A program made the position numbers and the translations under genes. From Candidatus Sphingobacterium stercorigallinarum (GTDB taxonomy: Bacteria; Bacteroidota; Bacteroidia; Sphingobacteriales; Sphingobacteriaceae): a stretch of 64,000 nucleotides of DNA. Positions 1 to 29,148 of this stretch are shown in pieces. The stretch lies in NCBI GenBank assembly GCA_019115805.1, contig DXCW01000163.1:900-64899 (forward strand). The letters are read 5' to 3'. The notes beneath the pieces are model-generated. The model made no database searches. It was given only the letters and a program-made list of their open reading frames with translations, and was not told the origin of the DNA. Each line of letters starts with the position of its first letter. Position 1 is the stretch's first letter.

Positions 1-1314
1 CTGGACCGGCCTGCATCGCTTGCCGGACGTTCCTATGTGCATGTGATCGGTGATGAGGTCAAGTATTTTCCGGAACACAAAATTGCCAACCTATTAAAAT
101 CAGTGCGTGGTTACGCGGTCAAATACGGAAAATCGGTATTCTATCGTGGCCACACATTCACAACGGATATGCCAAATACCAAAAATATCGGTGAGCATGA
201 CTGGATTTTAAAGCAGGTCAACAAGATGAAAAAGACAGCCGTTCTTCGGATACTTCGCGCGGCATTTGTATTGAACGAATGTATCCAAGAAAGGATTTAT
301 TTCCAGCAAAAAAACGATCGGGAAGAGGCAGTAAAAAAACTTAGAACCGAAGAAAGATGGCGGCAAAGATGGGTTGAAACTCGTATGCATAAAGATGGTC
401 AAACGTTATTTTTTATTGCATCTTCATTGGTGAATATAGATATCCTGACTCCAGAGTGGTTTACGGATGCGATCCAAACCGACCTTGGTGACGTGGATAC
501 CGCGGTGTTGTCGCTTAAACCTACCCTTGAATCCGGAGAAAGATTTTACGCGAATATTGCAGAAGCACATTTTTACGCAGACGGGAAAGATCCGAGATGG
601 ACGGATCATTTTGGCATTTCTGAATCGGAAGACTGCAGGATCCTTCGATACCTCAACAGAAAGAAAGTGATCGAAGTCGGACTTGATTTTGGAAACATGA
701 TATCCATGACAATTGGTCAGCCCAAACCGAACCGGGAATATCGGATACTTAAATTCATGTATACCCTTTCTCCGAATTGGATCCCTAAGCTTGCTGCTGA
801 ATTTATAGAATACTTCGATCCACAGGAAGAAAAAGTGATCCACGCCTATTATGACCGTGCCGCAAACAATTATAAAGATGCGAAAGTAGATCTAGCGTTA
901 GCGTTTAAAAATGCGATAGAGTTTAAAGAGGATGGGCGAACGAGAACCGGTTGGCGCGTGGTGCTGATGTCGCGTAACCAGGGAAATATTGGGCAAGCTG
1001 AAGAATACGTGTTTATGCAAGACCTTTTCTCTGGATCAAACCCGAAGCTCCCTAAGGTGCTTATCGATATATACGAGTCGAAATACCTTAAGGCATCGTT
1101 GGAGGGAGCGAAAACGAAGATTGTTCCGAACAAAGCTCGTGCGTCTGTCACCACTAAAGACAAGTCTTCCGAGAAATTACCTATTCACCGGCTGCCTTTG
1201 GAATCAACAAACGCTTCAGATAGCTTTAAATACTTGATGATGCGTAGAGAGTGGCGGATATTGGTTCGTAAAAAGTCTACTCAGAATATTTCGGATTCTT
1301 CAGTCGTGGGTTGA
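1..1314 (+). CDS. terL: Terminase large subunit (5' partial, open to window edge)
   Basis: Frame 1 has no stop upstream of the GTG at 37. Motifs seen: Walker-B-like HVIGDEV, and nuclease-domain-like GLDFG, YYDRAAN and C-terminal TNASDSFKYL. Located upstream of the portal-like gene. Confidence 0.72.
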   Translation: MDRPASLAGRSYVHVIGDEVKYFPEHKIANLLKSVRGYAVKYGKSVFYRGHTFTTDMPNTKNIGEHDWILKQVNKMKKTAVLRILRAAFVLNECIQERIYFQQKNDREEAVKKLRTEERWRQRWVETRMHKDGQTLFFIASSLVNIDILTPEWFTDAIQTDLGDVDTAVLSLKPTLESGERFYANIAEAHFYADGKDPRWTDHFGISESEDCRILRYLNRKKVIEVGLDFGNMISMTIGQPKPNREYRILKFMYTLSPNWIPKLAAEFIEYFDPQEEKVIHAYYDRAANNYKDAKVDLALAFKNAIEFKEDGRTRTGWRVVLMSRNQGNIGQAEEYVFMQDLFSGSNPKLPKVLIDIYESKYLKASLEGAKTKIVPNKARASVTTKDKSSEKLPIHRLPLESTNASDSFKYLMMRREWRILVRKKSTQNISDSSVVG

Positions 1315-1318
1315 TAGG

Positions 1319-2458
1319 TTACATCTTTAAGTATTCATTAAATGGCATTAAGACTTCCCGTAGCTTGACTTTATCTCTGAAGTTCCTAGCGATATTATAG
1401 GCAGTTTTCGTATAAGACGACATACCATCGTAATTATAAACATGGATCTTTTTACAGTATTTATTTTCAAACAGCATATTTAGGAGGGTTCGATCAGTGA
1501 TACTGCATGAATGTCCCATTACATATATTTCATAAGGTCCGAGTGCTGTGAACCCAAGCAAATCTTGATAGGACTGGTTGCGGAAATAGTGAAAAGATTT
1601 CATACATTTTAGCCACTCATCAGAGTACTTACTTTCTATTATTGAATAGAATTCATTTTGCTCGTCACCAATGCCAAAAACCACGTCATTATAGTTGTCT
1701 ATTGTTCCGTGTATTGGAATTATTTCTAATGAAGATAGCTTATCTCTATATCTCGACATTAGCAGATTTCGAAGATTCCATTGAAACGTTGTATAGTTAA
1801 AGTTGAGGAAAATTGCTGCTGGTCTGGAATCACCTTTATCTTTCAAATCCAATCGATCGAATGGGAAGTTAAACCAATTTGAAGTGCGTTCAATATCGGG
1901 CTGATTTTGTGTCTTCAAATAATTCACCAAATTTATTTTAAGACAATCGACTGATTGGTTAATCTGTTTTATTACGTCGGTTTGTTCTTGAAAAAGTCTA
2001 GAGCTTCGTATGTCGGGACCGTTTGTATTAGTTTTAACCTCGTGATGCGCCCTTTCAATCGATGAATAGATTTCGTGCTCTATTCCGTTCCATTCCGCAT
2101 CAATACACTCCGTTAAAATTTTATTGATAAATAGATTTTTTGCCTTTATGGCGATGTTGAATCCACTATAATGGGGATCAGGTAACTTTTTAACTATCAC
2201 TTCTGACAAAGTTCCTTTTTCAAAATCTGAATTTAGTGATTTAAAAGCTTCGGAATGTCGTCCCGGTGGGGAAAAGTATCTTGCAACCAACATCTCGATA
2301 CAGTTGTCCTCAAATTGATTTTTGCCGGATTCCAATGCCTGTTTTAAGCTTTCGTTGAGATACCATATAATAAAACTTCCATAGTCAGTCTTCAATTTAT
2401 GACCTAAATCGAAACCATTTCCGATAAGGAAGATCTTATTCCTACTTTCCTGTTCCAT
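1319..2458 (-). CDS. AbiH-family abortive infection protein
   Basis: N-terminus NKIFLIGNGFDLGHKLKTDYGSFI matches the hallmark AbiH (PF14253) start (IIGNGFDLahGLkTsY). C-terminal IYVMGHSCSITDRTLL resembles the second conserved AbiH block. Opposite strand to the phage late genes and visibly AT-rich (about 32% GC in a sampled 60-mer). Confidence 0.8.
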   Translation of the reverse strand: MEQESRNKIFLIGNGFDLGHKLKTDYGSFIIWYLNESLKQALESGKNQFEDNCIEMLVARYFSPPGRHSEAFKSLNSDFEKGTLSEVIVKKLPDPHYSGFNIAIKAKNLFINKILTECIDAEWNGIEHEIYSSIERAHHEVKTNTNGPDIRSSRLFQEQTDVIKQINQSVDCLKINLVNYLKTQNQPDIERTSNWFNFPFDRLDLKDKGDSRPAAIFLNFNYTTFQWNLRNLLMSRYRDKLSSLEIIPIHGTIDNYNDVVFGIGDEQNEFYSIIESKYSDEWLKCMKSFHYFRNQSYQDLLGFTALGPYEIYVMGHSCSITDRTLLNMLFENKYCKKIHVYNYDGMSSYTKTAYNIARNFRDKVKLREVLMPFNEYLKM

Positions 2459-2568: not shown

Positions 2569-2847
2569 ATGACCGTATACGAGGCGATATCAGAAATGCG
2601 AAAACTGTCCAAAGAGGGTAAATCGTTCAGTTTTACTTTCGTTTCCTATTCCCATTCTCGAGGTGAAAGCCATGGAATTGTGGAAGTTCCGGCCGCTAGA
2701 CTTCGTAAACGTGGTAAAACGGCACACAACCGATATGCCGAGCTTCAGGAAGAATATGTAAACGTCAATACGGGGGAAGCCAGGAGATTTTGGCACTGCT
2801 GCCTATTGAGCTTTAATGGTCAATCATTAAAATTTGCTGCTGAATGA
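2569..2847 (+). CDS. Small phage protein, unknown function
   Basis: 92-aa ORF whose stop overlaps the portal start (ATGA). No motif recognised. Confidence 0.4.
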   Translation: MTVYEAISEMRKLSKEGKSFSFTFVSYSHSRGESHGIVEVPAARLRKRGKTAHNRYAELQEEYVNVNTGEARRFWHCCLLSFNGQSLKFAAE

Positions 2848-4214
2848 AAACTAAAGAAATAACCGAAAATGCGAGAGCCGTCCACTTATCCGATGGATCG
2901 GTATATACGATTTCGATGAGTCATCAATTAGATGATCGGTGGTCAACACAGTTGTTTTCCTTCTCCAATTCTTGGGAATCAGATCCAGCCATTGTAATGG
3001 GCAAGCGAATAGTGCCTTATGGACACAATAACGACTTACCATCTGTGATCCGACGAATTATGGACAACTCGAATATCGGCCCCGGAATATTGCAAAGGAA
3101 AATCGGCTTGCAGTATGGAGAAGGCCCCTTCCTATATCGCGATCATTTTGATAGGGAAACGGGAAAAATTATACGTGTGCCGGTCCAACACGGGGAAATC
3201 AAGGCCTGGCTACAAACTTGGGACTTTGATCGGTATATTGAAATTGCCACAACGGAGTTTATGCATACCCAAGGCTTTTATACCCGATGGTACCGGAATA
3301 AAGGCCCGAGGATCGGTGGGAAAGGTAAAGTTGTCAAATTGGAACCTGTACTTAATACCTGGGCGCGTCTGGGTTGGCCGGATCACCCTGAGAAGCGATT
3401 GGAAAACGTCAAGAAAATCTATGTGGGTGATTTTGAGAACAATTGTCTGCACTCAGGAATATCAACTTACCATGCGTTTGATAAACGAGATCCGTTTCGC
3501 AACCCGGTATCCATGAGCTATCACAATCTATATAGTTTTGCAAGGGCATTCTATCCTGTTCCATCTTTTTTTGGAACATTGAAATGGTTGGCAACAGCTT
3601 CGGAGATTCCGGATATCATCAAGTACCTAACCGACAATGGAATCTCCGCGGCATTCCATATTCACTCTCCGCAAGGGTATTGGGATGACAAACGAGAAAA
3701 GTTGCTGCAACGGTTTCCGGAAGAAACTGAAGCGCAAATCGATAAGCGGGTGAGTGAGATTAAGGAACAGTTGTTTCGTTCCATTGCTAACGCGCTTGCA
3801 GGAAAGGAAAACGCGGGTAAGTTTATTGAGACAGTCGATTTCTACGATATTGATGGGAATTTATGCGAGTGGAAAATTGAGCCTATCGATCAGAAAATAA
3901 AAGACTTCATCGAAGCGCAGGTGAAGGTCTCAGAAAAGGCCGATTCTGCGGCCACTTCTGGGATGGGTTTGAACCCAGCACTCGCCAATTTAATCACCAA
4001 CAATTCGTTTTCTGGCGGATCGCAGCAATTATATGCTGCAAAGTTCCATGTGCTCACCGATGTTAACATTCCGGAACGCATCATATTTGAAGCAGTCAAC
4101 CAGGCCATTTCCATCAATTGGCCAGAAGAAAATGTGAAAATGGGATTCTATCGAAAGATTATTATGAAAGAAGAAGACGTGTCACCTGCAAATCGAGTTG
4201 CAGCTCAAGCCTAA
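2844..4214 (+). CDS. Phage portal protein (probable)
   Basis: 456 aa, follows the terminase. Size and the C-terminal Gly/Ser-rich segment (SGMGLNPALANLITNNSFSGGSQQLY) are typical of portals. Assigned from position and general resemblance only. Confidence 0.55.
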   Translation: MKTKEITENARAVHLSDGSVYTISMSHQLDDRWSTQLFSFSNSWESDPAIVMGKRIVPYGHNNDLPSVIRRIMDNSNIGPGILQRKIGLQYGEGPFLYRDHFDRETGKIIRVPVQHGEIKAWLQTWDFDRYIEIATTEFMHTQGFYTRWYRNKGPRIGGKGKVVKLEPVLNTWARLGWPDHPEKRLENVKKIYVGDFENNCLHSGISTYHAFDKRDPFRNPVSMSYHNLYSFARAFYPVPSFFGTLKWLATASEIPDIIKYLTDNGISAAFHIHSPQGYWDDKREKLLQRFPEETEAQIDKRVSEIKEQLFRSIANALAGKENAGKFIETVDFYDIDGNLCEWKIEPIDQKIKDFIEAQVKVSEKADSAATSGMGLNPALANLITNNSFSGGSQQLYAAKFHVLTDVNIPERIIFEAVNQAISINWPEENVKMGFYRKIIMKEEDVSPANRVAAQA

Positions 4215-5162: not shown

Positions 5163-6023
5163 ATGCATACTATTGAAATACCGCAAAAGGATCTCATAGT
5201 AGAGATTCCATCTGAATGGGACGAATGCACCTCTGAGCAGGTTCATTTTATTTTGGGTAAGGCGTTTCAAGTGATCAATGGAACATTATCTCTGGCCGAA
5301 TTTCGAATCCAAATTTTCGTGTTGTTTACGGGTTTGAAGTTCGGCCCAGGTTATCATATAAAACAACGTCTGGGCTACAATGCAGAAATAAATGAACGGA
5401 TATACCTTTTGTCAGAACAACTGTGCGGATGGATCTTCGAGAAAAATGAACAAGATGGTTTTGAATTATCCTATCAGACAATAACCAATTTCTTTCCCGT
5501 TTTATTGAATAAGTATCACGGTCCCGATGATTTACTGGCAGATATCACATTGGCGGAGTTTAAGCAAGCGATCGCCATGCTTAACGATTATTTCGAAACG
5601 AAAGAGGATCCAGATAGAGCTGATCTCTTTCTGAATTATTTCATAGCAACACTATACCGGCCGAAAGATAAAAGTGGAATCAAAGTGCCTTTCCATAGCT
5701 ATGTAGTAGAACCGACCTTGTTTGAGCGGGTTGAACCGTGGCGAAAGCAAGCAATTGCAATTTGGTTTTCTTACTGCATAAAATGCCTTCAGGAGGAAGA
5801 CCTGGTTATACAGGGTATTGATGTTAATTTCTCTGCACTATTCCCTTCAGGAAAGGCAAATCCAACTACACATAAAAGGGTGAACCTGGGATGGGCTGGT
5901 GTAGTCTTGGATATAGCTGAATCGGGTGTGTTTGGTGACGCTTCGAAAACCAGCCAAACCTTGTTGTACGATATATTGATTTTCCTTCTGAAAAAACATA
6001 ACGATCAATCTAAACAGAAATGA
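5163..6023 (+). CDS. Phage head-module protein, unknown function
   Basis: 286-aa ORF starting 3 nt after the previous stop. Same strand, tight packing. Confidence 0.4.
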   Translation: MHTIEIPQKDLIVEIPSEWDECTSEQVHFILGKAFQVINGTLSLAEFRIQIFVLFTGLKFGPGYHIKQRLGYNAEINERIYLLSEQLCGWIFEKNEQDGFELSYQTITNFFPVLLNKYHGPDDLLADITLAEFKQAIAMLNDYFETKEDPDRADLFLNYFIATLYRPKDKSGIKVPFHSYVVEPTLFERVEPWRKQAIAIWFSYCIKCLQEEDLVIQGIDVNFSALFPSGKANPTTHKRVNLGWAGVVLDIAESGVFGDASKTSQTLLYDILIFLLKKHNDQSKQK

Positions 6024-6454
6024 TAGGTATTAAAGAGTTTAACGAAATTTGTCAAGATATTGTCGAGCAAATAGGCATTAAAGGCCATGTAATATGCAGC
6101 ACAGAAGAGCAGGGCGCAAAGAAATTGAAGGATAAAGGGGATATCTGGCTTGTCGCTGTTTATCCGAATTACTCTTTCGATGGAGATCCAGATTCGTATC
6201 AAGATCGACACGAACTGATGTTCTTGGTGGTCACTCGGCAAATTGAGGGAAAAAGTGATGAGTTCGAATTGGAACAGTATTACAACACCCAACAAGCTAT
6301 GGTGAAGCTCAAACAATATTTATTTGGAGAGGGAGATCAGGTTGATGAGTTATGTAAGCTATTCCCTAATCTTAAAGTAAATTCTGTCGCCATTGAACCG
6401 GAGTACAATATCTTCGGCGGATATCTTGGCTGGTCCATGATCCTCGACGTCTGA
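6020..6454 (+). CDS. Phage head/neck-module protein, unknown function
   Basis: 144-aa ORF with an ATGA overlap with the upstream gene. Confidence 0.4.
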   Translation: MIGIKEFNEICQDIVEQIGIKGHVICSTEEQGAKKLKDKGDIWLVAVYPNYSFDGDPDSYQDRHELMFLVVTRQIEGKSDEFELEQYYNTQQAMVKLKQYLFGEGDQVDELCKLFPNLKVNSVAIEPEYNIFGGYLGWSMILDV

Positions 6455-6597
6455 AATTGTCCTACAATAATCTAAAAGCGTTGGCTAGCAAAGTGGAGGT
6501 TCAAGACAAAAGCTTCTTATTTAGAAATAGCGGTTCGAAATAGCACACGGTATTGAAATCTACTAACCAATTTAGGTTTTGATCCTGGGAGTATTGA

Positions 6598-6618
6598 AAA
6601 AATAATTTAAAATTATTT
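6598..6618. promoter_or_regulatory. 10-bp inverted repeat (aaaataattt a aaattatttt) in AT-rich leader upstream of the Panacea-like gene; possible operator next to a TTTG ... TATATTGT promoter-like pair
   Basis: Arms 6598-6607 and 6609-6618 are exact reverse complements. TTTG at 6633-6636 and TATATTGT at 6651-6658 loosely resemble the Bacteroidetes -33/-7 elements, with shorter spacing than consensus. AT-only sequence, so chance is plausible. Confidence 0.3.
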
Positions 6619-6754
6619 TAAAAATTTACAACTTTTGCAAAAATATGTGGTTATATTGTCAGACCTAGGTAGTGGACTTCATCGATTGGGGTAACATTTA
6701 TTATAGTGCTCAATCGCCTTTATCATATGAAATTCATATAGAAATACTGCATCT

Positions 6755-7282
6755 ATGTCAAAGATTGAAAGTTTTGAATATTTCTTAAAAGGGCTTGTTG
6801 GTTGGTTCTGTGATTTTTATACGATAGACAACGCCGATTTCAATGACCATCCTCAGAATAATCTAAGTAAGTTGAAGGTAATTAAGCTACATTTTTTTGC
6901 CTCAAGTACTTCAACGGATATGCTAGATTTATTTGATGACTTCCATGCGATGCCATATGGCCATGTGGAAAGCGAGATTTATCGATCTCTCTCAAAATTG
7001 CAGTTTGCCGAAGTGACGAACACCAAACTCGTAATTACCGATATCAAATCGTTTAATGAAGTTTCTGTCGGACAAAGTGAAGTTGTCGACAACTCTATAA
7101 GTACTTTGAAAGAACTCAATTCCCAGTTGATTTCGTTCTCACCATTTGATTTAGTGGAGCTTAGCCACAAATGGTTCTCATGGAGATATAACTTCGAAAT
7201 AGCCAAAAAGGATGGATCATTTTCCAGGCCAATCAGTAAAGAACTTATAAAAAAAGAAGAAAAATATTATAGCTTGTTTTAA
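6755..7282 (+). CDS. Panacea (DUF4065/SocA/GepA-like) domain protein, putative antitoxin
   Basis: LSKLKVIKLHFFASS ... FHAMPYGHVESEIY ... DLVELSHKWFSW parallels the Panacea domain pattern (LKLQKLLYy ... f.AwkyGPVvpevY ... tH...pW). 175 aa, AT-rich. Stop overlaps the start of the next gene (TAATG). Confidence 0.7.
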   Translation: MSKIESFEYFLKGLVGWFCDFYTIDNADFNDHPQNNLSKLKVIKLHFFASSTSTDMLDLFDDFHAMPYGHVESEIYRSLSKLQFAEVTNTKLVITDIKSFNEVSVGQSEVVDNSISTLKELNSQLISFSPFDLVELSHKWFSWRYNFEIAKKDGSFSRPISKELIKKEEKYYSLF

Positions 7283-9192
7283 TGAGTTCTCAATTTCATT
7301 TTAGTTCGAACACTTTAATCGAACTTTTAGAAGGCCAGCATTTCCAATCGACATGGCTGAAGAATAGTAAAGGAGAAGTTCCTAATCAATCAGACTCGGG
7401 ATTAGTAGCCAACACAATTATAGGGGCAGGTACGGAGATTGCCAAATTTTTTCAATTGTTGTTTTTGAGTGGGGAGTATTTGAATTTGTTAGATCACGAA
7501 GAAGAATCTTATTTTGACGAAATCGAAAAATACTTAAATGAGCATGGAAATAGTATAGAAGAGCTAGAAGAAGGCCCAGAAAAATATAAAATACAAGAGA
7601 TCTTTCGTGGAAATATTATTCTTCCATTTACGAATCTAATCCGACCCTTATCTACGTATTTATTAAGGGACGTTCGATCCCAGTTAAATCTAGAATACAC
7701 GACTGATATATTTCGTGGAGAGCGTTCCTGGTACGACAGTACAAAAGTGGACGATGTGTTGCACCACCATTTTATTTCGTTTCAAATAGTAATTCGTATC
7801 ATTCGTTCAGAGCACTTCGGCTACTCGTTAACTAATGACTTGATTAGGAATCTGGTTATTTATTATGGGGAATCTCGAGCTATTTCTATTGATACAGTCC
7901 TTAAGGAGGCAATATCGGTAAAAGTTGATTTTCTCCTTAAAAAGCTTCTTTATCGGGCAGAAAATGATCCGCAAGATTCGTTGGAACCTCGAATGATTTA
8001 TTCATTCGATCGACAGGAGGACAAAACAGTTGATTTGGAGTCAATTGTAATTCACGAATCTTTGTCAGAATGGGAGCGTTTGATTAAAGTTCATTACGGC
8101 TTGTTAAAGAATTTCAAATCGGAACAGCGAAAGCGAAGGAAAGTTATCGAGAAGAAATCAAAAGAAGATTATGTGACATTAGATTTCCATGGCTTAATCA
8201 AGATATATAAGGACGATTCAAAAAATTTCCAGCTTGCGAATGAACTCTATCAATCATTTTCTGCCCGACAGTCCAATGGTTCGACATTCAATAAATATAG
8301 TAATGAAGTGTCTGGTTCTTATCTGTTCAATAATATAGTTTCGCTTGAGTGTGAAATCGGTGACTTTACTGTCGATAAAGCTAAAGAGCTTTTCAGCAAA
8401 ATAAAGAATAAACAGAATGAGGATGAGATTAGGAACTATTTTCCATGGGAGAAATTAGCTACGAAATTGAACGATATTCTAAGTGGGCTTTCGCGCGAAC
8501 TGGTCGAAAATGATAAACTCAAAAGTTTCAATGGTTTTCTAGATGTTTTTGCAGCAACGCTTAAAAAACTCGAAGAGGCATATCGATGGAGTCAGAATAA
8601 AAAGCTAGTACCTATTCAACCTAATTTTGCGGAGTGCCAATCTCCATACATTATCAAACTAGATAACTACCCGGATATTAAGTTATTTTTCTTTTCGTCG
8701 TTTATGCTGCCACTGGACTATAAAAGAGTTAGTTCAAATATCACTGAACTGGAAGAGAAATATAAAAGTTTCACTTCTTTGAAGACTGTATACAGTAGGT
8801 TAATATCAGTTGTGTCGGAGATGAAGGATGTAACCGAGAAAATGCGAAAACAAGAGCGAAGGTCAATTGAAATATTAGCCATCTTCTCAGCGGTAGCATT
8901 GTTTTCGGTTGGAAGTATACAAATATTCGGTGTTGAAAGTATTCAGGGTGATCCTCATGTCTACTATCGATTTATATTAGCTTATGGGTATTCATTAGCA
9001 TTATTCGTATTGCTGATTTGGATTATAACCCGGGAAAATTTGAGAAAGGTATTTTGGTTTCATTGGACAATCGTAATTTTAGTTTTCCTAGGTACTTTAA
9101 TCGCGGTTGGATATGCTAATGGAGCATCGATTTTCAAATTCATCAAAGATGATATACTGACGCTTTTCAATTCATCAATCAATCACAAATAA
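7282..9192 (+). CDS. 636-aa protein of unknown family: large soluble N-terminal region, coiled coil, three C-terminal TM helices; candidate toxin/effector partner of the Panacea protein
   Basis: Uninterrupted ORF coupled to the upstream gene. Hydrophobic segments are IEILAIFSAVALFSVGSIQIF, YYRFILAYGYSLALFVLLIWII and VFWFHWTIVILVFLGTLIAVGYA (about aa 529-612, nt 8866-9117). They are preceded by the charged helix EEKYKSF...MKDVTEKMRKQERR. No catalytic motif recognised. About 30-40% GC in sampled 60-mers. Confidence 0.6.
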   Translation: MSSQFHFSSNTLIELLEGQHFQSTWLKNSKGEVPNQSDSGLVANTIIGAGTEIAKFFQLLFLSGEYLNLLDHEEESYFDEIEKYLNEHGNSIEELEEGPEKYKIQEIFRGNIILPFTNLIRPLSTYLLRDVRSQLNLEYTTDIFRGERSWYDSTKVDDVLHHHFISFQIVIRIIRSEHFGYSLTNDLIRNLVIYYGESRAISIDTVLKEAISVKVDFLLKKLLYRAENDPQDSLEPRMIYSFDRQEDKTVDLESIVIHESLSEWERLIKVHYGLLKNFKSEQRKRRKVIEKKSKEDYVTLDFHGLIKIYKDDSKNFQLANELYQSFSARQSNGSTFNKYSNEVSGSYLFNNIVSLECEIGDFTVDKAKELFSKIKNKQNEDEIRNYFPWEKLATKLNDILSGLSRELVENDKLKSFNGFLDVFAATLKKLEEAYRWSQNKKLVPIQPNFAECQSPYIIKLDNYPDIKLFFFSSFMLPLDYKRVSSNITELEEKYKSFTSLKTVYSRLISVVSEMKDVTEKMRKQERRSIEILAIFSAVALFSVGSIQIFGVESIQGDPHVYYRFILAYGYSLALFVLLIWIITRENLRKVFWFHWTIVILVFLGTLIAVGYANGASIFKFIKDDILTLFNSSINHK

Positions 9193-9398
9193 GTCAGCAA
9201 ACGTCAACTTAATTTAATTAATCACTGAATTTTCATAATAGTCAAAATGAAATATTTAGTAACTATCTGACTGGTAGGGTAATAGTGCGTGAATGGTATT
9301 TGTTCAATATTTTTGATCATTGGGTTCACCGGCCCGCCCTGTTCCTTTTTTGCAATTGCACCCCGGCGCCGGCCCCCAGAAATATGACATGCCACTGT

Positions 9399-9434
9399 AA
9401 AAACAGCCTTAAATCACGTTTAAAGGCTGTTTTT
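9399..9434 (+). terminator. Rho-independent terminator closing the two-gene insert
   Basis: aaaaacagccttaaa / tttaaaggctgttttt hairpin with one bulge and loop tcacg. Followed by a T-run. Confidence 0.55.
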
Positions 9435-9571
9435 GATTATGGATCAGACTACCTATGCCTATCCCATTCGGCCTCAACTAGCCACTGCTGAAATTTCCTG
9501 TATCCCTGCCGAATATCGTGTCCTTTAACAGGCTTTGATCTACTATTAGATTCGTCCAATAACTCTGAATC

Positions 9572-9964
9572 ATGGACGCTATTAAAGGAAAATTCATTGA
9601 GCATACACTGCGGGAAGAGGGCAAACGATTCATACGGAACCAAGGTGCTGCTATTAAAACTGAACTTAGAAACCGGACAGGTAATCTCCTAAATAACCGA
9701 AAATTCAAAATAATCGGAAGTGGCGCGCAAGCTACACTGCATATTGACGTGCCCGATTACAATAGATTCTTAGACATTCGAAGTAAGTTTCGAAGGCACA
9801 AGCGAGGTCAGAGCAAGCGCTCCAGTGGTAAAGGTCTGCGGATTTACAATCGGTTTGTGATGGGACATTACCAGGGCATTGCTGAACGTCTGATGTATGG
9901 ATATACCCAATCCACCATCGATATGATTCGTGAAAAGTGGAAAGGAGGTTTCGATGGCCAGTAA
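9572..9964 (+). CDS. Basic phage protein, unknown function (immediately upstream of tape measure)
   Basis: 130-aa ORF rich in K/R. Its 3' end overlaps the likely tape measure ATG (9954) by 11 nt. Confidence 0.4.
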   Translation: MDAIKGKFIEHTLREEGKRFIRNQGAAIKTELRNRTGNLLNNRKFKIIGSGAQATLHIDVPDYNRFLDIRSKFRRHKRGQSKRSSGKGLRIYNRFVMGHYQGIAERLMYGYTQSTIDMIREKWKGGFDGQ

Positions 9965-12900
9965 ACTGAAAGCCGAAACGTTGTCACTCGATGTGGTGGT
10001 TAATTCAAACGAGGCACAGAAGCGATTTAATGATCTTGGTCGAGAAATCACTGATACTTCAGCACGTGTCAAGGAATTAAAAGCTGAACAAGCATTGCTC
10101 GCTAAAGAAGGAGGGAAGAACACTGTAGAGTATAAAGCGCTGTCTAAGGAGATCCGCGAAAACCAAACTCGAGTCAAGGCATTAAAAAACGAACAGGGTG
10201 AGCTTATTAAAAGCTTAGACCTTGAACAGAAAACAATGTCTCAGCTGAAGCGGGAGCTTAGGGATCTGGCAAGACTGAGGGATAATAGTATTCCTGGTTC
10301 GGAACAGTACAACGAATACGCGAAACAAGTAGAAAAAGTATCCGGAAGATTAAGAGAGTTGCGTATTGGTGCCGATAATACAGGTAGTTCGATTGAACGA
10401 CTAGGTGGCAAGTTTCGAGGATATGTCACAACGGTTACGGCTATAGCGGCATCGTTAACAGGTCTGACTCTTGGCGTGCGAAAGGCAATCACCGAATTCA
10501 CACAATTTGATGATTTGCTAGCCGACGTGATGAAGACAACAAACCTTAGCAGAGAATCTGTTGCAGAGCTTAATGAGGAGCTGCGAAAGATTGAAACTCG
10601 TACATCTCAGGAAGATCTCCTGGGGCTATCGCGAATCGCTGGTAAACTCGGGTATACTGAGATATCGGACATCACTGAATTTGTAAGAGCGAATAACCAG
10701 ATTGTCGTCGCGCTTAATGAAGACCTGGGAGGGAATGTCGAAGAGACCGTAAATAAGATCGGTAAACTGGTGGATGTGTTTAATCTTCGAGACTTGTATT
10801 CTACTGAAGATGCATTTCTCAAAGTCGGATCCGCCCTGAATGAATTGGGGATGGCGTCGACAGCCAACGAAGGCTACATGGTAGAATTCACCAGAAGAAT
10901 GGCGGGTGTCGCTCCTCTAGCGGGTATTAGCATTGACCAAATATTGGGCTTAGGTGCAGCGTTGGATCAGCTAGGCCAGACAGAGGAAGTATCGTCCACT
11001 GCCCTCAGCAAACTGTTCTTGCAAATGGCTAAGGATGCGGAAACGTATAGCAAATATGCTGGAATGCAAGTGACCGAGTTTAAAGACTTGCTTGAGAAAG
11101 ATTTCATGACAGCTTTCACCCGTGTATTAGAAGGTGTACAGAGTAGCTCGAATGGAATCAATGAACTTGCTGCAACACTTGGCGACCTCGGCCAGGATGG
11201 GGGACGTGTCATAGGCGTTATTGGCTCGTTAGCGGGCAACGTTGATGTACTTAAATCGTCAATGGATCTAGCGAATCAATCGATGATTGAGGGGGTATCG
11301 ATAACAGAAGAATACGAAATTAAAAATGAGACGGCTGCCGCGAAACTTGAGATCGCCAAGAAACAACTTAAGGAGTTGTGGATCCAATTAGGCGAGCAAC
11401 TTTGGCCAGTAATGACAACAGGGCTTGGGTTATTTAGCCAATTTATTACAGCCATCAGTAAGACCATTGCATTTATCTCCGAAAATCGAAAAGTTATAAC
11501 GGTATTGGTCGTTGCGATTACATCGTACACCGTGGCCGTAAATTTGGCAACTGCAGCAACTTTTGTGTTAACTCGAGCAAAAGCTGCTGCCACAGTAGCA
11601 CAAAATCTTTGGAACATTGCACTTCGAGCCAATCCTCTCGGATTAGTTATTGGCTTAGTAAGCTCTCTAGCAGCGGGATTATACGTATTACGGGATCGGA
11701 CTGATTCGGCAACGACTGCACAGAACCATCTGAATGAAGCAATCGATAAGTCTAAACTCGAATATGAGAAGGAACGCTATGCTATTGAACAAAGCATGGA
11801 AGCTGCGTTGGATAAAACGAGGGCGGATGATCAGAGACTGGCTGCTGTTAATAGACTGCGAGAGGTAATGCCGGACGTTCTCAAGGGATACTCAGATGAG
11901 CAAATTATGGCAGGGCAAGCAACAGCAGCGATTAAGGAGCAAATCAAGCAAATTATTCGACTCTCTACTGTAAAGGCGTATAGCAACAAACTTGACGAAC
12001 TGAGTGCACGTCGTGCGGATCTCCAAGATCAACTAGAGCGGGGCTATTCTGGGTCCACGATATCCGAGAGATTGACTTTAACGCCGGATGTTTTTTTCAA
12101 AGGGGATTGGGCACAAGCATATGAGGACGCAGTCCAAAAGCAAATCGATGGGATAGAGGCTGCACGGGAATTGGTCGGTAATAAAATGCTTGAAGAACAA
12201 GTAAAGCTCAATAAAGCAATTCTTGGCGCTGGAAAGAATGGTGATGATGATGAAAATCCGGATCCAGTGACCGTTACTCCCGGGGGCGGATCAACAAATA
12301 ACGCTTTTCGGAAGGAACTGGATGCTGCCGAGAAGCATTACCAGGATCTTCTTCAGCAGAAGGGTTTGTTTCGCCGAGATCTTTCTGAACTAGATAAGAA
12401 GCAGCTGGAGGAACTATCGATGTATGAATCCCAGTATCAATCAAAAGTTGATGGCGTTCACCGTAAACATGGGGAAACCTTAAAAACTATAAATCAAACC
12501 GCGAGTCAGGAACTAAAACGCCGGGAAAAATCAGAAGCGAGTGCTGTTGATTCCATTTTGAGAAAAAAGCAATCGGAAGCTGAAGGGGAGCGCGCTGCTT
12601 TCGAGGACCGTTTGAAGAATGCCGGATTGTTTGGTGTAAAGCGAGAAGGATTAACGGAGAGGCAACTATCTGCTTTGGTGGCATTGGAGCGAGAGCATCA
12701 AGAACGACTTGATCAAATTGATGCAGATGCATTAACTAAGGAGATCGACCGCAGGTTAAGCGAGAATAAGGATGCATTAACGGACCTCCAGTTAAAACAC
12801 CAGCAAGAACTTGCTGAGATAGAGACATTTGATCAGGCGAGGATAGTTTTGTCTGAGAACCTGTCAACTCGAGAGCTGTCCAAGATCAAAACATTGTCGG

Positions 12901-14126
12901 ATGCGAAGAAAGAGATCCAGCGTCAGCAGCAGAAGGTAGAACAAGACATGCTTCGAAATCAGCTTGAAGATATGATGGGGATTCTTGAACATGCAATGGG
13001 CACTGGTGAATTCGAAGGAATTGTACTGGCCGATGATATTTTCTCTGAAAAGGAAATGGAAGTTTTGAAAGGGCAGTTTAGGAAAATCAGAGAATTGCTA
13101 TTAAAGATCAATCCAGAGGAAGAAGAGGACAGTAAACGCGATCGGGAGCGAAAGCGGGTGGATGTTTTAGGAATGTCAGTCGAGGATTGGGACATGCTCT
13201 TTGATCAGCTTGCCACGACTGAGCAACGCGTACAAAGTGTGATGGGGGCACTAAATGCAGCCACGCAGCTTTGGGGGCAATACAACAAGATGGTTGCAAA
13301 CCGGGAGAATGCGCAGCTTCAGAAGGATCAAGCTGCGAATGACAAGAAAAAAGAGAATCTCCAGCGGAGACTGGATTCCGGAATCATTTCCCAGGAGAAT
13401 TACAACGCGCAGGTTGAAAAGATGGATCGTGAGATGGACCGACAGAAAGCCAAAGTAGCAAGAGATCAAGCTATTCGGGATCGGAACGTATCTCTCATGT
13501 CAGCTATTGTCAATACGGCTAAAGCTGTAACTGGAGTCTTACCTAATTTTGTGTTGGCTGCCATAGTAGGGGCAATGGGAGCACTCCAGATTGGAACAAT
13601 CCGAGCGACGCCGCTCCCGGAGATACCAGGGGCGGAATCGGGAGGTCAACTTCTTGAGGTGATTCGAAGCCAGGACAACAAGAAATTCAATGCCAAGGCG
13701 GATCCCAGAAAAAGAGGATATGTAGATTCGCCAACTGTTTTGGTCGGAGAGAGCGGTCGGGAATGGGTAGCGAGCAATGATGCAGTCGGTAATCCCCAGG
13801 TTCGACCGATTCTTGACGTACTGGATACCGCTCAAAAGAATGGCTCTATAAGCACGCTAACCCTATCAGACATCATTTCCAATACACTCGGGTCGCGCAT
13901 GCCGGGACGGCAATCGGGCGGTACTTTATCGGGAACCGGTCGCATTACTGATTCAACGAATGACGGATTGTTACTGGAAGTTTTTCTAAAGCGAAACATT
14001 GAAGCTATCAGCAGTTTGGAATCGAAGCTTACCAATCTAAAGGCAGAAGTAACGCTGTTAGGTAAAAACGGATTCCTGGAGAAGAAAAAAGAACTAGACC
14101 AACAACAGAGTAACGGTAATTTATAA
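9954..14126 (+). CDS. Tail tape measure protein
   Basis: About 1390 aa with long coiled-coil stretches and a central hydrophobic/TM cluster (TVLVVAITSYTVAVNLATAATFVL, PLGLVIGLVSSLAAGLYVL). TP901-type tape-measure-like block around FTQFDDLLADVMKTTNLS. The ATG at 9954 is preceded by aaaggagg. Confidence 0.85.
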   Translation: MASKLKAETLSLDVVVNSNEAQKRFNDLGREITDTSARVKELKAEQALLAKEGGKNTVEYKALSKEIRENQTRVKALKNEQGELIKSLDLEQKTMSQLKRELRDLARLRDNSIPGSEQYNEYAKQVEKVSGRLRELRIGADNTGSSIERLGGKFRGYVTTVTAIAASLTGLTLGVRKAITEFTQFDDLLADVMKTTNLSRESVAELNEELRKIETRTSQEDLLGLSRIAGKLGYTEISDITEFVRANNQIVVALNEDLGGNVEETVNKIGKLVDVFNLRDLYSTEDAFLKVGSALNELGMASTANEGYMVEFTRRMAGVAPLAGISIDQILGLGAALDQLGQTEEVSSTALSKLFLQMAKDAETYSKYAGMQVTEFKDLLEKDFMTAFTRVLEGVQSSSNGINELAATLGDLGQDGGRVIGVIGSLAGNVDVLKSSMDLANQSMIEGVSITEEYEIKNETAAAKLEIAKKQLKELWIQLGEQLWPVMTTGLGLFSQFITAISKTIAFISENRKVITVLVVAITSYTVAVNLATAATFVLTRAKAAATVAQNLWNIALRANPLGLVIGLVSSLAAGLYVLRDRTDSATTAQNHLNEAIDKSKLEYEKERYAIEQSMEAALDKTRADDQRLAAVNRLREVMPDVLKGYSDEQIMAGQATAAIKEQIKQIIRLSTVKAYSNKLDELSARRADLQDQLERGYSGSTISERLTLTPDVFFKGDWAQAYEDAVQKQIDGIEAARELVGNKMLEEQVKLNKAILGAGKNGDDDENPDPVTVTPGGGSTNNAFRKELDAAEKHYQDLLQQKGLFRRDLSELDKKQLEELSMYESQYQSKVDGVHRKHGETLKTINQTASQELKRREKSEASAVDSILRKKQSEAEGERAAFEDRLKNAGLFGVKREGLTERQLSALVALEREHQERLDQIDADALTKEIDRRLSENKDALTDLQLKHQQELAEIETFDQARIVLSENLSTRELSKIKTLSDAKKEIQRQQQKVEQDMLRNQLEDMMGILEHAMGTGEFEGIVLADDIFSEKEMEVLKGQFRKIRELLLKINPEEEEDSKRDRERKRVDVLGMSVEDWDMLFDQLATTEQRVQSVMGALNAATQLWGQYNKMVANRENAQLQKDQAANDKKKENLQRRLDSGIISQENYNAQVEKMDREMDRQKAKVARDQAIRDRNVSLMSAIVNTAKAVTGVLPNFVLAAIVGAMGALQIGTIRATPLPEIPGAESGGQLLEVIRSQDNKKFNAKADPRKRGYVDSPTVLVGESGREWVASNDAVGNPQVRPILDVLDTAQKNGSISTLTLSDIISNTLGSRMPGRQSGGTLSGTGRITDSTNDGLLLEVFLKRNIEAISSLESKLTNLKAEVTLLGKNGFLEKKKELDQQQSNGNL

Positions 14127-21351: not shown

Positions 21352-22617
21352 CTAAAACTTTATTTTATAATGAGTCCTGAAGTCTTCTTGAATTTGTAAA
21401 GTTTTAAAATAATTGTCTTCATCATCAACATGTGCATATTTCTCGGTCGTTGCAATTTTAGAATGCCCGAGTAGCTTTTTAAGTAGATAAATATCCCCCA
21501 CATATTTCATGATCAAGTAACCAAAGGTGTGCCGCGCAACATGGGAGGTGATTGTTTTTCCGATACTGGCCATTCTACTCAGGTCTTTCAGGCTTCTGTT
21601 GTATTCTTGGCTTGTGGGCAAATCGAACAGTTTCCCGCGCGTTTCATTGACGAAAAGTTTCGCTAATGGTATTAATGGGATAGTGATCGTTTTTGGCCGC
21701 CGGTCTGAATTTTTACGCATAGTGAACTTCATAAAGTTGTCAGAAAGCATCCAAGAATATTCGGAATTGTAGAGGTCCGATATCCGGATTCCAGTGAAGC
21801 AGCAAAAGAGGAACGCTTTCAGAACATTGAAGTGGGTAGGCGATAAGGCTTTTTGATCCATCTGTTGGATCAGGCGCACAATCTCGTCTTTATTTAAATA
21901 GGTCGATTCGCTCTCCTGGTACGGATTAGGAAAATCAATGACGGATTGTGGCACGTAAACCTGTATTTCCTCACTGGCCACCCGAAAAAACGATTTGAGA
22001 TCCTTAAGCCTTGTCCATACTGTATTATGAGCCAATGGCTTCCCCGATGTGTTCTTTTGCTTTTTCAGCCAGGCTCTGAACTTCTGCATAAACTTTACGT
22101 CGACCTGATCCCATCGAAGGCCGGGTTCAAACTTTTCTAAGGCAATAATTGTGGAGCCATAATTCTTCCATGTTTGTTCAGAGATGGCTCTCAATTTGAA
22201 TAATTCTTTTCGTCGCTTTTTGAAGTAACCGATAACCGATTTGGCCGGATCGAAGTAGAAAAGCTCACGTTTAACGATATCAATACTTAGATATCGACCG
22301 GAAAGCCTATACAATTTTGCAATTTCATTCAGTTTCGCCCGTTCTGACATGATCATCATGTTGAAATCACTAGCGTCGGGATCTTTTTTTTGACGAGGCA
22401 ACAGTATGCTCTCCTCAAGATCGATTAAATCTGCGGGCCATTCTAGATTTAAAGGGATATAAGTCCTTGAGCTGTTTCCAGGAGTTGAGATGTAGACCTG
22501 AAGATACAACGCTTGATGGCCATTTTTTTTCAAGCGATTCTTATGGACGTGAAGCTTAGTCGAAAATTTAAACATGGCGTTTCCAATACTATTTATTTGA
22601 TTCGTCCGTAAAATCAT
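21352..22617 (-). CDS. int: Tyrosine recombinase / phage integrase (Bacteroidetes type)
   Basis: 421 aa. C-terminal catalytic block is HVARHTFGYLIMKYVGDIYLLKKLLGHSKIATTEKYAHV (H-x-x-R ... H ... Y), with upstream FTGIRISDL. N-terminal arm-binding-like region. Adjacent to the tRNA. Confidence 0.9.
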   Translation of the reverse strand: MILRTNQINSIGNAMFKFSTKLHVHKNRLKKNGHQALYLQVYISTPGNSSRTYIPLNLEWPADLIDLEESILLPRQKKDPDASDFNMMIMSERAKLNEIAKLYRLSGRYLSIDIVKRELFYFDPAKSVIGYFKKRRKELFKLRAISEQTWKNYGSTIIALEKFEPGLRWDQVDVKFMQKFRAWLKKQKNTSGKPLAHNTVWTRLKDLKSFFRVASEEIQVYVPQSVIDFPNPYQESESTYLNKDEIVRLIQQMDQKALSPTHFNVLKAFLFCCFTGIRISDLYNSEYSWMLSDNFMKFTMRKNSDRRPKTITIPLIPLAKLFVNETRGKLFDLPTSQEYNRSLKDLSRMASIGKTITSHVARHTFGYLIMKYVGDIYLLKKLLGHSKIATTEKYAHVDDEDNYFKTLQIQEDFRTHYKIKF

Positions 22618-22742: not shown

Positions 22743-22747
22743 CAAAG

Positions 22748-22829
22748 TACCCAGGGCCGGGATCGAACCGGCACGAATTGCTTCATTGGTGTTTGAGACC
22801 AACGCGTCTACCAATTCCGCCACCTGGGC
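22748..22829 (-). tRNA. tRNA-Leu (anticodon CAA)
   Basis: Reverse complement GCCCAGGTGGCGGAATTGGTAGACGCGTTGGTCTCAAACACCAATGAAGCAATTCGTGCCGGTTCGATCCCGGCCCTGGGTA. It shows a 7-bp acceptor stem (one G-U), a D-arm typical of tRNA-Leu, anticodon loop CU-CAA-AC, a long variable arm and T-loop GGTTCGATCC. No encoded CCA. Confidence 0.9.
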
Positions 22830-25159: not shown

Positions 25160-26710
25160 ATGTCAGAAAAAATCATCATTCTCGATTTTGGTTCGCAATA
25201 TACTCAGTTGATTGCTAGAAGAGTACGCGAACTTAACGTATACTGTGAGATTCACCCCTTTAACAATTTGCCGGAATTTGACCATACCGTCAAAGGCGTC
25301 ATCTTTTCCGGAAGTCCACATTCGGTCCGTCAGCAAGACGCTCCGCATATAGACTATGAGCAGATCCAAAGTCGCTTTCCGTTATTAGCGGTGTGTTATG
25401 GAGCACAGTATATCGCCCAGCAATTGGGAGGAGAGGTGACTCCGTCGGAAATTCGGGAATACGGTCGTGCAAACCTTCAGTTTGTAGATCAGCAAAATGC
25501 ATTATTGAAAGACATGCCGGTGCAGTCTCAAGTATGGATGTCGCATGGCGATACCATTCGAGAGGTGCCTGACCATATTCAAGTGATCGCTAGTACCGAT
25601 AAAGTCCGTGTGGCGGCTTATCAATTGGTAGGTACGCAAACCTACGGCATACAGTTCCATCCGGAAGTTACACACAGTACGGACGGACAAATATTGTTAA
25701 AGAATTTTGTTGTTGACATTTGCGGGTGTAGTCAAGATTGGACGGCCGATGCATTTGCCGAGACAACAATTGCTGAATTGAAATCAGAATTAGGTAGTGA
25801 CCATGTCATTATGGCTCTTTCTGGTGGCGTCGACTCCACTGTTGCGGCGGTGTTGTTGCATCATGCTATCGGGGAGCGATTACATTGCTTTTTCGTCGAT
25901 CACGGTTTGCTACGGAAAGGTGAATATGAGCAGGTGTTAGCCTCCTATAAAGACATGGGGCTAAATATTAAAGGGGTAAACGCCAAAGATCTGTTTTATT
26001 CTCGATTGGCAGGCGTAACAGAACCAGAAAAGAAAAGAAAGGTTATCGGAGCGTCATTTATCGATGTGTTTGATGAGGCCGCTAAGGAGATTCAGCGTGA
26101 GCTTCCAGCCGGAGTAGAAGCGAAATGGTTGGGGCAAGGCACAATTTATCCGGATATCATCGAATCGATTTCCGTCAAAGGCCCCTCTGCTACGATTAAA
26201 TCACATCACAATGTGGGCGGGTTGCCTGATTATATGAAATTAAAGGTTGTTGAACCTTTAAAGACGCTTTTCAAAGACGAGGTTCGGCGCGTGGGTAAGA
26301 CGCTAGAGGTGGATCCAACTATATTAGGCCGTCATCCTTTCCCTGGGCCTGGACTTGCAATTCGTATACTGGGAGACATTACGGAAGAAAAGGTACGGAT
26401 TTTGCAAGAAGCTGATGACATTTATATTCGTAATTTGAAAGAATCGGGATGGTATGATAAAGTGTGGCAGGCCGGGACCATATTCTTGCCGGTTCAGTCT
26501 GTCGGCGTGATGGGAGACGAGCGTACATACGAGCACGTGGTCGCTTTACGTGCAGTGGGATCGCTAGACGGTATGACAGCGGATTGGATTCACTTGCCTT
26601 ACGACCTACTTGCAAAAATTTCGAATGAAATTATTAATCATGTCAAAGGAATCAACAGAGTCGTGTATGATATCAGTTCAAAACCACCAGCAACCATTGA
26701 GTGGGAATAA
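25160..26710 (+). CDS. guaA: GMP synthase (glutamine-hydrolysing)
   Basis: [27 protein letters not shown] (GATase), [10 protein letters not shown] (ATP-PPase P-loop) and conserved C-terminal PPATIEWE. Confidence 0.97.
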
Positions 26711-27963: not shown

Positions 27964-29148
27964 GTGCTGGAATCGGAAATCAAAAATAGGCGAATAGCCA
28001 ATCATTTCAGGAACTTTGAGCGTACCATAGCAGCTTATCGACCGGTAGAACCGTTTTCGAGATTTCTGACTAAATTTTACAAACAGAATCGGCAAATGGG
28101 TTCTTCCGATAGAAGAATGAATAGCCGTTATTGTTATAATTTTTTTCGTCTGGGTCATGGATTAGAGAACTTGAAACCTTTGGAAAGACTGTGTGTGGCC
28201 GAATTTCTTTGCGAGACCGACAGTCTTTTGATAGAAGATCTTAAGCCAGAATGGGCGGGACGTATTGCTGAAGATCTTTCTGCAAAACTGGTATTTATCG
28301 AATCCCTGTATGGTCCCTTTGCAGATCAGGTATTTCCTTCTTCGGTTGCACTATCCGTAGGCATCAATCGGCTCTCCTTTATTTCTTCTCATTTTATTCA
28401 GCCGGATCTTTTTATTCGAGTAAAACGCGGTCATGAGGCGAGCGTAGAGCAGGCGTTAGCTGTAATTAATTTATCTTTTCGGAAAGACGATAACCAAACC
28501 CTTGCACTACCAAATGGCAGCAAGTTACAAGAGCTGCAACACGTAGCCGGATCGTTCGAAGTGCAAGATCGCTCTTCACAACGCTCATTAGATGGATTAC
28601 ACGTGCCTGTTGGACAGTCTTGGTGGGACTGTTGTGCAGCGTCTGGCGGCAAATCACTGCTGCTATTGGACGAATATCCGGTAAGCGAATTATTGGTGTC
28701 AGACTCGCGTTTGAGTATCCTTAGAAATTTGGATGCACGATTTGAACAGGCAAAAGTCAGTCTGCCGTATCGGAAAAAGATATTGGATTTAAGTCAACCC
28801 ATTGCACACCTCATGCAAAATGATGCATTTGACGGAATTATTTTGGATGCGCCTTGTACGGGTTCGGGGACCTGGGGACGGACGCCGGAAATGTTAACGC
28901 AATTCAACCCCAGTATCTTGACCTCGTTTAATACCTTACAACGAGATATTGCGCGTCACGTGGTTCCATATTTGAAAAGCGGTGGAACGCTGGTGTATAT
29001 TACCTGTTCGGTATTCCTAGAGGAAAATGAAGCAGTCGCCGATTTTATAGAAAAAGAACTCGGCTTGATACCGTTACAGCAGCAGGTCATCGCGGGCTAC
29101 GCACAGCGAGCGGATACCATGTTTGTTGCCCAATTTAAAAAACCTTAA
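27964..29148 (+). CDS. RsmB/NOP2/Sun-family SAM-dependent RNA m5C methyltransferase
   Basis: DAPCTGSGTWGRTPE and YITCSV motifs (the two catalytic Cys motifs of the family). WWDCCAASGGKS is the SAM pocket. Confidence 0.75.
   Translation: MLESEIKNRRIANHFRNFERTIAAYRPVEPFSRFLTKFYKQNRQMGSSDRRMNSRYCYNFFRLGHGLENLKPLERLCVAEFLCETDSLLIEDLKPEWAGRIAEDLSAKLVFIESLYGPFADQVFPSSVALSVGINRLSFISSHFIQPDLFIRVKRGHEASVEQALAVINLSFRKDDNQTLALPNGSKLQELQHVAGSFEVQDRSSQRSLDGLHVPVGQSWWDCCAASGGKSLLLLDEYPVSELLVSDSRLSILRNLDARFEQAKVSLPYRKKILDLSQPIAHLMQNDAFDGIILDAPCTGSGTWGRTPEMLTQFNPSILTSFNTLQRDIARHVVPYLKSGGTLVYITCSVFLEENEAVADFIEKELGLIPLQQQVIAGYAQRADTMFVAQFKKP

Follow-up and report, generated by a model that had tools for sequence, protein, structure and literature searches.

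Panacea antitoxins pair with dozens of unrelated toxins. Some of these toxins (PanTs) act at the membrane: three validated membrane-targeting PanTs depolarize membranes, and one of them, the PanT of Helicobacter sp., in which a coiled-coil N-region is followed by C-terminal transmembrane (TM) helices, depolarizes without permeabilizing (PMC8832971). It is also known that standalone Panacea antitoxins (PanAs) contact the helix ahead of the TM region of membrane PanT (PMC10440598). Here we analysed a 64,000-nucleotide stretch of Candidatus Sphingobacterium stercorigallinarum (contig DXCW01000163.1 of assembly GCA_019115805.1; hereafter the window), which carries a cassette of two open reading frames (ORFs) on the (+) strand, 6755..7282 (175 aa) and 7282..9192 (636 aa). 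We lean towards reading this cassette as a bicistronic PanA/PanT-type toxin-antitoxin (TA) or abortive-infection system with a toxin that acts at the membrane, and refer to its genes as panA and panT. An earlier description of the window, made from its letters (the original prediction), had drawn attention to positions 8740-9192, which are codons 487-636 and the stop codon of panT.

The panA-panT pair and the architecture of PanT

The features of the cassette are as follows. Structural assignments refer to AlphaFold2 models and their predicted local distance difference test scores (pLDDT); the PanT monomer model was built from a 143-sequence homologue alignment.

6755..7282, (+) strand: panA, a 175-aa standalone Panacea (SocA/DUF4065) protein and putative antitoxin, from Pfam, NCBIfam and PHROG matches and from its orthologues
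7280..7284, (+) strand: TAATG stop/start overlap of panA and panT, a one-base overlap read from the sequence
7282..8718, (+) strand: PanT residues 1-479, a soluble all-alpha cytoplasmic domain (N-domain) of no known fold, with pLDDT mostly 93-98
8719..8862, (+) strand: PanT residues 480-527, a charged amphipathic heptad stalk helix that ends in the basic cluster KMRKQERR, from AlphaFold2 and heptad periodicity
8863..8928, (+) strand: TM1, residues 528-549, motif ExRxIEILxIFxAIVLFxxGSIQxF, from hydropathy and conservation
8959..9033, (+) strand: TM2, residues 560-584, motif SLxLFVLLIWxITR, from hydropathy and conservation
9055..9117, (+) strand: TM3, residues 592-612, with conserved hydrophobicity and non-conserved sequence, from hydropathy and from 140 of 143 family members
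9118..9192, (+) strand: variable C-terminal tail, residues 613-636 and the stop codon, predicted to be extracytoplasmic, from conservation and length spread

For the upstream protein, the Panacea/SocA assignment (PF13274, DUF4065) is borderline when the window copy is taken alone, whereas at the level of the subfamily its sequences point clearly to this domain. The window PanA matched NCBIfam SocA_antitoxin (E 1.4e-7) and phrog_1281 (E 1e-11), and PF13274 was matched by six of the seven PanA orthologues. The PanA subfamily comprises 770 proteins at E <= 1e-5, and many relatives at 37-45% identity carry precomputed PF13274 matches and Panacea/SocA names. These matches agree with the original prediction, which had named the partner of PanT a Panacea protein. 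The AlphaFold2 model of PanA has a pLDDT of 96.8, and two PDB profile searches with PanA revealed no relatives by sequence.

The two genes appear to form an obligate pair. At all 17 distinct loci, which cover ~20% to 48% PanT identity to the window PanT, panT is immediately preceded on its own strand by the gene of a PanA homologue (173-188 aa), and the spacing between the two is -1 to +14 nt. Over 120 locus pairs, the identities of PanA and PanT are strongly correlated (r = 0.94), indicating that the two proteins co-evolve, which is consistent with a complex but no proof of one. In the window, the TAATG overlap suggests that panA and panT are translationally coupled.

PanT is predicted to consist of a large cytoplasmic domain, a stalk and a membrane module. 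Kyte-Doolittle 19-residue windows of at least 1.6 were confined to residues 528-552, 561-584 and 589-618, and the maximum across residues 1-480 was 1.23. The AlphaFold2 model (mean pLDDT 93.1, predicted TM-score 0.84) is all-alpha and has helices at residues 480-549 (stalk and TM1 unbroken), 558-583, 592-612 and 617-635. Exactly three hydrophobic segments follow the equivalent of E530 in 140 of 143 full-length homologues. The best a/d-phase heptad windows of the whole protein begin at residues 474-480, the heptad score of residues 490-527 was reached by only 87 of 5,000 shuffles, and 42% of these residues are charged, compared with 28% for the N-domain. Therefore, the charged heptad-like helix that had been proposed at about residues 490-525, running into three TM helices, is confirmed by peptides that are indeed present, by hydropathy, by the model, by the shuffles and by the homologues. 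The preceding residues had been described as soluble and devoid of nuclease, NTPase, protease or kinase signatures, and this also stands: in addition to the low hydropathy, Pfam was negative, and a motif scan of PanT found no Walker A, HExxH, GxSxG, HRD or conserved HEPN motif. Occurrences of R-x4-6-H were ruled out as HEPN motifs because their arginines are not conserved. Comparison by hhalign of five N-domain segments and the stalk/TM segment revealed no internal repeats.

Averaged over the family, PanT has 4.2 K and R residues ahead of TM1 and 1.6 in the tail, whereas loops 1 and 2 have 1.0 and 2.9, respectively. From this charge distribution an N-in/C-out topology is predicted for PanT, and we infer that the protein resides in the inner membrane. 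The charge topology joins hydropathy and AlphaFold2 in support of the layout proposed earlier, in which a heptad stalk connects a cytoplasmic domain to a membrane module of three helices. The stalk has a pLDDT of 95-98 in the monomer model, and there are hints that, at least in this model, it packs on its own N-domain rather than forming a coiled coil between subunits. One family member (P0099; 892 aa, encoded on a 4.3-kb metagenome contig) has an extra domain of ~260 residues past TM3, which would be extracytoplasmic if the topology holds.

The PanT family, its conservation and a possible mechanism

A word-indexed search with the window PanT retrieved only 11 relatives at 35-48% identity, and the named ones belong to Sphingobacterium, Parapedobacter and Albibacterium (Sphingobacteriales). 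An exhaustive hidden Markov model search covered 1.84 billion representatives. With clusters defined at 50% identity, it yielded 470 of them at E <= 1e-3, of which 373 reached E <= 1e-10 and 124 reached E <= 1e-30. Further named members come from Flavobacterium collinsii and Sphingobacterium kitahiroshimense, and the range is extended by a pair whose PanA is named Ignavibacterium album at NCBI. A profile search of genomes for loci gave only six close loci; across the 17 distinct loci, the genus names are Sphingobacterium, Parapedobacter, Albibacterium, Mucilaginibacter, Pedobacter and Flavobacterium, together with the Ignavibacterium-type PanA. Nearly all family members are 570-700 aa long and match end to end, with no domain swapping. 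The membrane-acting Panacea partners tested to date are small, and PanT here is of 600-680 aa; this nearly fixed size sets the family apart from small pore-forming TA toxins, as had been anticipated.

The proteins of the PanT family are labelled hypothetical in every source. Pfam contains no family for the window PanT and no family shared among 68 diverse members. Searches of Pfam, NCBIfam, PADLOC and PHROGs with PanT gave only sub-threshold matches, which came from hydrophobic segments (LtrA at 16 bits, transporters), and no defence model of PADLOC-DB v2 was matched by the window PanA, the window PanT or three distant PanT members. PDB sequence-profile searches with PanT returned noise only (rhodopsin TM segments and designed helical proteins). 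When the full PanT model was compared with the PDB by Foldseek, the matches were alpha-solenoids with a best E of 0.087 and TM-scores below 0.22, and these were rejected. A fold search of BFVD with PanT gave one match, A0A8S5VY37, a probable family member of 634 aa from a phage metagenome. No matches were obtained by tblastn of the window PanT, the PanT of locus L012 and the family member P0164 against INPHARED phages, or of the window PanT against PLSDB plasmids. The literature searched describes no family member that has been tested. The family accessions do not occur in the accessible part of the PanAT table (PMC8832971) or of the NetFlax supplements, which does not prove absence from the 88 published PanT clusters of the former study. 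Cluster T1 of the former study was considered and set aside, as it is an mRNase-like toxin different from the PanT family. We regard the family as an uncharacterised, large Panacea partner with three TM helices; Panacea-controlled modules as such are already known.

Conservation was calculated per column as bits multiplied by occupancy, using a 143-sequence alignment with a pairwise identity of ~20%. The mean values were 2.89 for TM1, 2.31 for TM2, 1.35 for the stalk, 1.31 for the N-domain, 1.28 for TM3 and 0.37 for the tail, whose occupancy is 0.41 and whose length ranges from 0 to 73 aa over the family. Within the membrane module, E530 (0.96), F535 (1.00), A537 (0.95), F541 (0.97), F575 (0.99) and R584 (0.80) hardly vary. 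A plain anchor would conserve hydrophobicity and not sequence. Therefore, the values of TM1 and TM2 (2.9 and 2.3 bits versus 1.3 for the N-domain), together with the near-invariant E530, F535, A537, F541 and F575, suggest that the two helices are more than a simple anchor, and from their sequences they look like a functional element that either lines a pore or serves as an oligomer interface.

The N-domain has near-invariant residues of its own (G64, K214, K221, K310, Y347, N350, S354, N385, S472 and P477), and a diversifying sensor would explain its polar set no better than would a binding or catalytic site or a contact surface for PanA. An alternative, which we judge unlikely, is accordingly that the toxic activity lies in this N-terminal 480-residue domain, as an enzyme or binding module at the inner membrane face, with lipids, lipid-linked precursors or a membrane protein as possible targets; the TM helices would mainly anchor and orient it, and PanA would still be the antitoxin. 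Such a role would suit a well-folded module (pLDDT 93-98) whose K214, K221, K310, Y347, N350, S354, N385 and S472 are conserved as at an active or ligand site, and an architecture that is fixed over ~470 clusters with no swapping of domains. However, Pfam, PDB-fold and motif scans revealed no catalytic motifs or known enzyme folds in the domain, and TM1 and TM2 show about twice its conservation per column, polar and aromatic positions included, which is unusual for a mere anchor.

In the membrane-acting cassette that we favour, PanA would bind PanT directly and hold its membrane module inactive, by analogy with the described Panacea antitoxins. Once PanA is lost, displaced or altered, for example upon infection by another phage, PanT would be released. 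The stalks may then drive the assembly of several PanT copies, and the TM1-TM2 hairpins would make an ion-conducting or membrane-perturbing structure. By analogy with the validated membrane PanTs, the membrane would depolarize, and growth or phage replication would halt.

Several observations weigh against this proposal. The window PanA scored 23.5 bits (E 1.1e-4) against Pfam SocA_Panacea, for which the cut-off is 25.7, and a fold search of BFVD with PanA returned only unnamed phage proteins of ~150 aa. Of the two proteins, PanA is in every case the better conserved (mean identity 43%, compared with 29% for PanT), contrary to what TA pairs usually show. The 636 aa of PanT are several-fold above the typical size of a type II toxin, activity could reside in its N-domain, which also has near-invariant polar residues, and neither PADLOC nor PHROGs matched PanT.

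A more far-reaching version, which we put forward tentatively and consider rather doubtful, is that the family forms a widespread, new effector class of large membrane-embedded proteins in the FCB group (Bacteroidota, Ignavibacteriota; at least 470 clusters at 50% identity), in which the N-domain, of novel fold, senses a phage cue and gates a homo-oligomeric TM1-TM2 channel convergent with CorA, with Panacea as a regulated lock. If this is true, orphan PanA proteins of phages, as in locus L030 described below, would be anti-defence decoys. If PanT is toxic, it would represent a new membrane effector fold and a tractable case for the control of a large membrane protein by a standalone Panacea domain. 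It would also lengthen the short list of defence or addiction modules characterised in Bacteroidota and their phages.

Genomic contexts and the prophage of the window

The pair was found in diverse contexts. It is encoded on IMG/VR phage contigs, where late and replication modules meet, and in one prophage close to its integrase. It stands beside the conflict genes CTD1/MComp1/SMC/nSTAND3-Mrr at one locus and Mrr-CTD12/MC8/DUF2326 at another, and it adjoins a Fic gene at one locus. It also occurs as isolated insertions among housekeeping genes, within a haem operon and after a suf operon and Rrf2. Such patchy, phage-borne and defence-island-like contexts suggest a mobile, selfish or defensive two-gene module. 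The behaviour expected of a mobile TA or defence cassette was thus recovered in the prophage of the window, on phage contigs, in defence-island-like neighbourhoods and in patchy insertions.

The surroundings of the cassette in the window, including the candidate signals at its borders, are as follows.

2844..4214: portal-like gene (phrog_22277, E 5e-79)
6020..6454: 144-aa gene, left flank of the panA/panT cassette
6633..6660, (+) strand: candidate Bacteroidota-type promoter (TTTG at 6633-6636, TATATTG at 6654-6660), found by eye
9398..9435, (+) strand: terminator-like hairpin with an A-run and a U-run at its sides, ~205 nt past the panT stop codon
9572..9964: 130-aa gene, right flank of the cassette, ahead of the tape measure
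9930..14126: tape-measure gene (PhageMin_Tail)
21352..22617, (-) strand: tyrosine integrase, adjoining tRNA-Leu(CAA)
22747..22829, (-) strand: tRNA-Leu(CAA), which with the integrase marks the right end of the prophage
25160..26710: guaA, a host gene beyond the right end of the prophage
27964..29148: RsmB-like host gene

The left 22.8 kb of the window are a prophage, whose left end lies outside the window. The G+C content of the cassette is 35-36%, compared with 43-44% for the prophage backbone and the host. Three syntenic phages (loci L026-L028; portal identity 53-77%) lack the cassette and keep the flanking genes; its slot is filled by different unannotated cargo, with proteins of 344, 234 and 213 aa. 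The cassette is therefore a low-GC, horizontally acquired moron in a prophage at tRNA-Leu.

The slot occupies positions 13610-15004 in L026, 13719-14734 in L027 and 13725-14641 in L028, and looks like a hypervariable cargo hotspot within the tail-gene block. Its 344-aa and 234-aa proteins have hydrophobic segments at the N-terminus. A conserved gene of ~105 aa is also present in the slot of the related phages and is missing from the window.

The prophage also encodes an AbiH-family abortive-infection gene (1319..2458, (-) strand; Pfam PF14253, E 4e-24; PADLOC AbiH, E 2e-6), located between a 425-aa gene (37..1314) and the portal gene. Its low G+C content (0.354 versus ~0.43 for the backbone) and its absence from the syntenic phages L026-L028 mark AbiH as a second defence moron of the same prophage. 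As both low-GC morons, AbiH and panA/panT, occupy variable slots and the structural module around them is conserved, this phage is a good model for the exchange of defence cargo.

The position of the cassette within a virion-structural block, with AbiH as a neighbouring defence moron, together with the predicted inner-membrane location and large cytoplasmic domain of PanT, would also suit a non-lethal membrane defence of the superinfection-exclusion type, in which PanT blocks DNA entry or another membrane step and PanA is a regulator or co-factor. We consider this quite improbable, as the pair is also present at many non-phage chromosomal sites, including the inside of biosynthetic operons, in the manner of addictive TA-like cassettes, and as a need for neutralization best accounts for the fact that PanT is always coupled to a Panacea antitoxin. 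The insertions among housekeeping genes (haem operon; suf operon and Rrf2) bear on a further explanation, in which no conflict is involved and the pair serves the FCB group as a regulatory or housekeeping complex at the membrane, one subunit of which happens to have the Panacea fold. The unusually good conservation of PanA and the failure of defence databases to recognise PanT are compatible with such a complex. We nevertheless regard it as very unlikely, given that the pair is patchily distributed in single copies of foreign G+C content, is carried on phage contigs, is absent from syntenic phages and has a different neighbourhood at every locus. A PanA/PanT-type cassette with a membrane-acting toxin is thus the reading that we retain.

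Some of the loci have features of their own. In Albibacterium bauzanense (L004, 11979-17926), the set of CTD1, MComp1, SMC-like ATPase and nSTAND3-Mrr genes is located ~2 kb downstream of panA-panT; this set is a multi-gene NTP-dependent conflict system, and the region is therefore a defence island. Two loci (L021, 5443-7857; L022, 3050-5464) carry panA-panT inside a haem-biosynthesis row beside the coproporphyrinogen oxidase gene, with an ALAD gene on the other side of the insertion in L022, and the PanA partner in this row has a clear PF13274 match. Loci L030 (2326-3426) and L029 (4481-5582) share a 1.1-kb segment of 99.7% identity, which holds an Rrf2-like gene and panA together with the initial 36 nt of panT. 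One of the two contigs looks chromosomal and encodes a full 614-aa PanT; the other is phage-like (NinG, many small ORFs) and carries no PanT. The phage-like contig represents either an orphan antitoxin, possibly anti-defence, or an assembly chimera.

The candidate promoter, of low confidence, sits in the 300-nt gap 5' of panA. In a sigma-70 scan, which does not cover Bacteroidota promoters, sites were no commoner than in shuffles. The hairpin past panT has a predicted RNA folding energy of -15.8 kcal/mol (z = -5.3) that was equalled by none of 200 shuffles, and we infer that it is a terminator. The 380-nt non-coding gap after panT also contains a G+C-rich stretch at 9330-9385 (cggcccgccc...ccccggcgccggccccc). 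A conserved stretch is present at the equivalent place in L027 and L028, 5' of the homologue of the 130-aa gene, and spurious minus-strand ORFs are similar between the L027/L028 stretch and the 9330-9385 region of the window. Rfam gave no matches on 6400-9650, including the G+C-rich stretch.

Comparison with known membrane effectors and PanAT systems

CorA-like membrane effectors occur in type III CRISPR systems. The original prediction had likened PanT to CorA, and this likeness holds for the architecture and not for homology. Both PanT and the CorA/MIT proteins have a large cytoplasmic N-domain and a long stalk helix that continues unbroken into TM1 (residues 480-549 in the AlphaFold2 model of PanT). 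In both, TM1 bears a conserved motif towards its outer end (GSIQxF in PanT, GMN in CorA), and TM2 is followed by a basic residue. However, PanT has three TM helices instead of two, and its N-domain is all-alpha instead of alpha/beta. Homology to CorA was rejected: when the family profile was compared with E. coli CorA by hhalign, the probability was 0.16%, Pfam CorA (PF01544) was matched neither by the window PanT nor by any of the 68 family members, and the motif scan found no GMN motif in PanT.

RexB, CBASS Cap15 and 2TM/4TM effectors, and Pycsar PycTM are abortive-infection membrane effectors. Cam1 (PMC10808066) and RmrT of RosmerTA (PMC10440598) are further effectors of this kind. PanT would share with all of these the general logic of a cytoplasmic control module joined to a few TM helices, whose activation collapses the membrane potential and stops phage replication. 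There is no sequence or profile similarity between these effectors and PanT (PADLOC). In those systems, either a nucleotide signal or a sensor protein distinct from the effector controls gating, whereas the Panacea antitoxin is the only partner here.

The locus is most similar to the PanAT systems (PMC8832971, PMC10440598). The validated membrane PanTs of these systems are small peptides or coiled-coil proteins, whereas members of the family described here are 600-680 aa long, include a folded all-alpha domain of 480 residues without a counterpart among known folds, and match no annotated sequence. Both genomic hallmarks of PanAT, a partner with a Panacea domain and a conserved tight operon, are nevertheless present. 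The resemblance extends to the standalone Panacea gene at the upstream position, the tight antitoxin-first two-gene operon, its conservation across species and its mobility, including occurrence in phages. As in PanAT systems, the downstream protein ends in TM helices after a heptad helix, and the closest described case is the PanT of Helicobacter sp. (PMC8832971).

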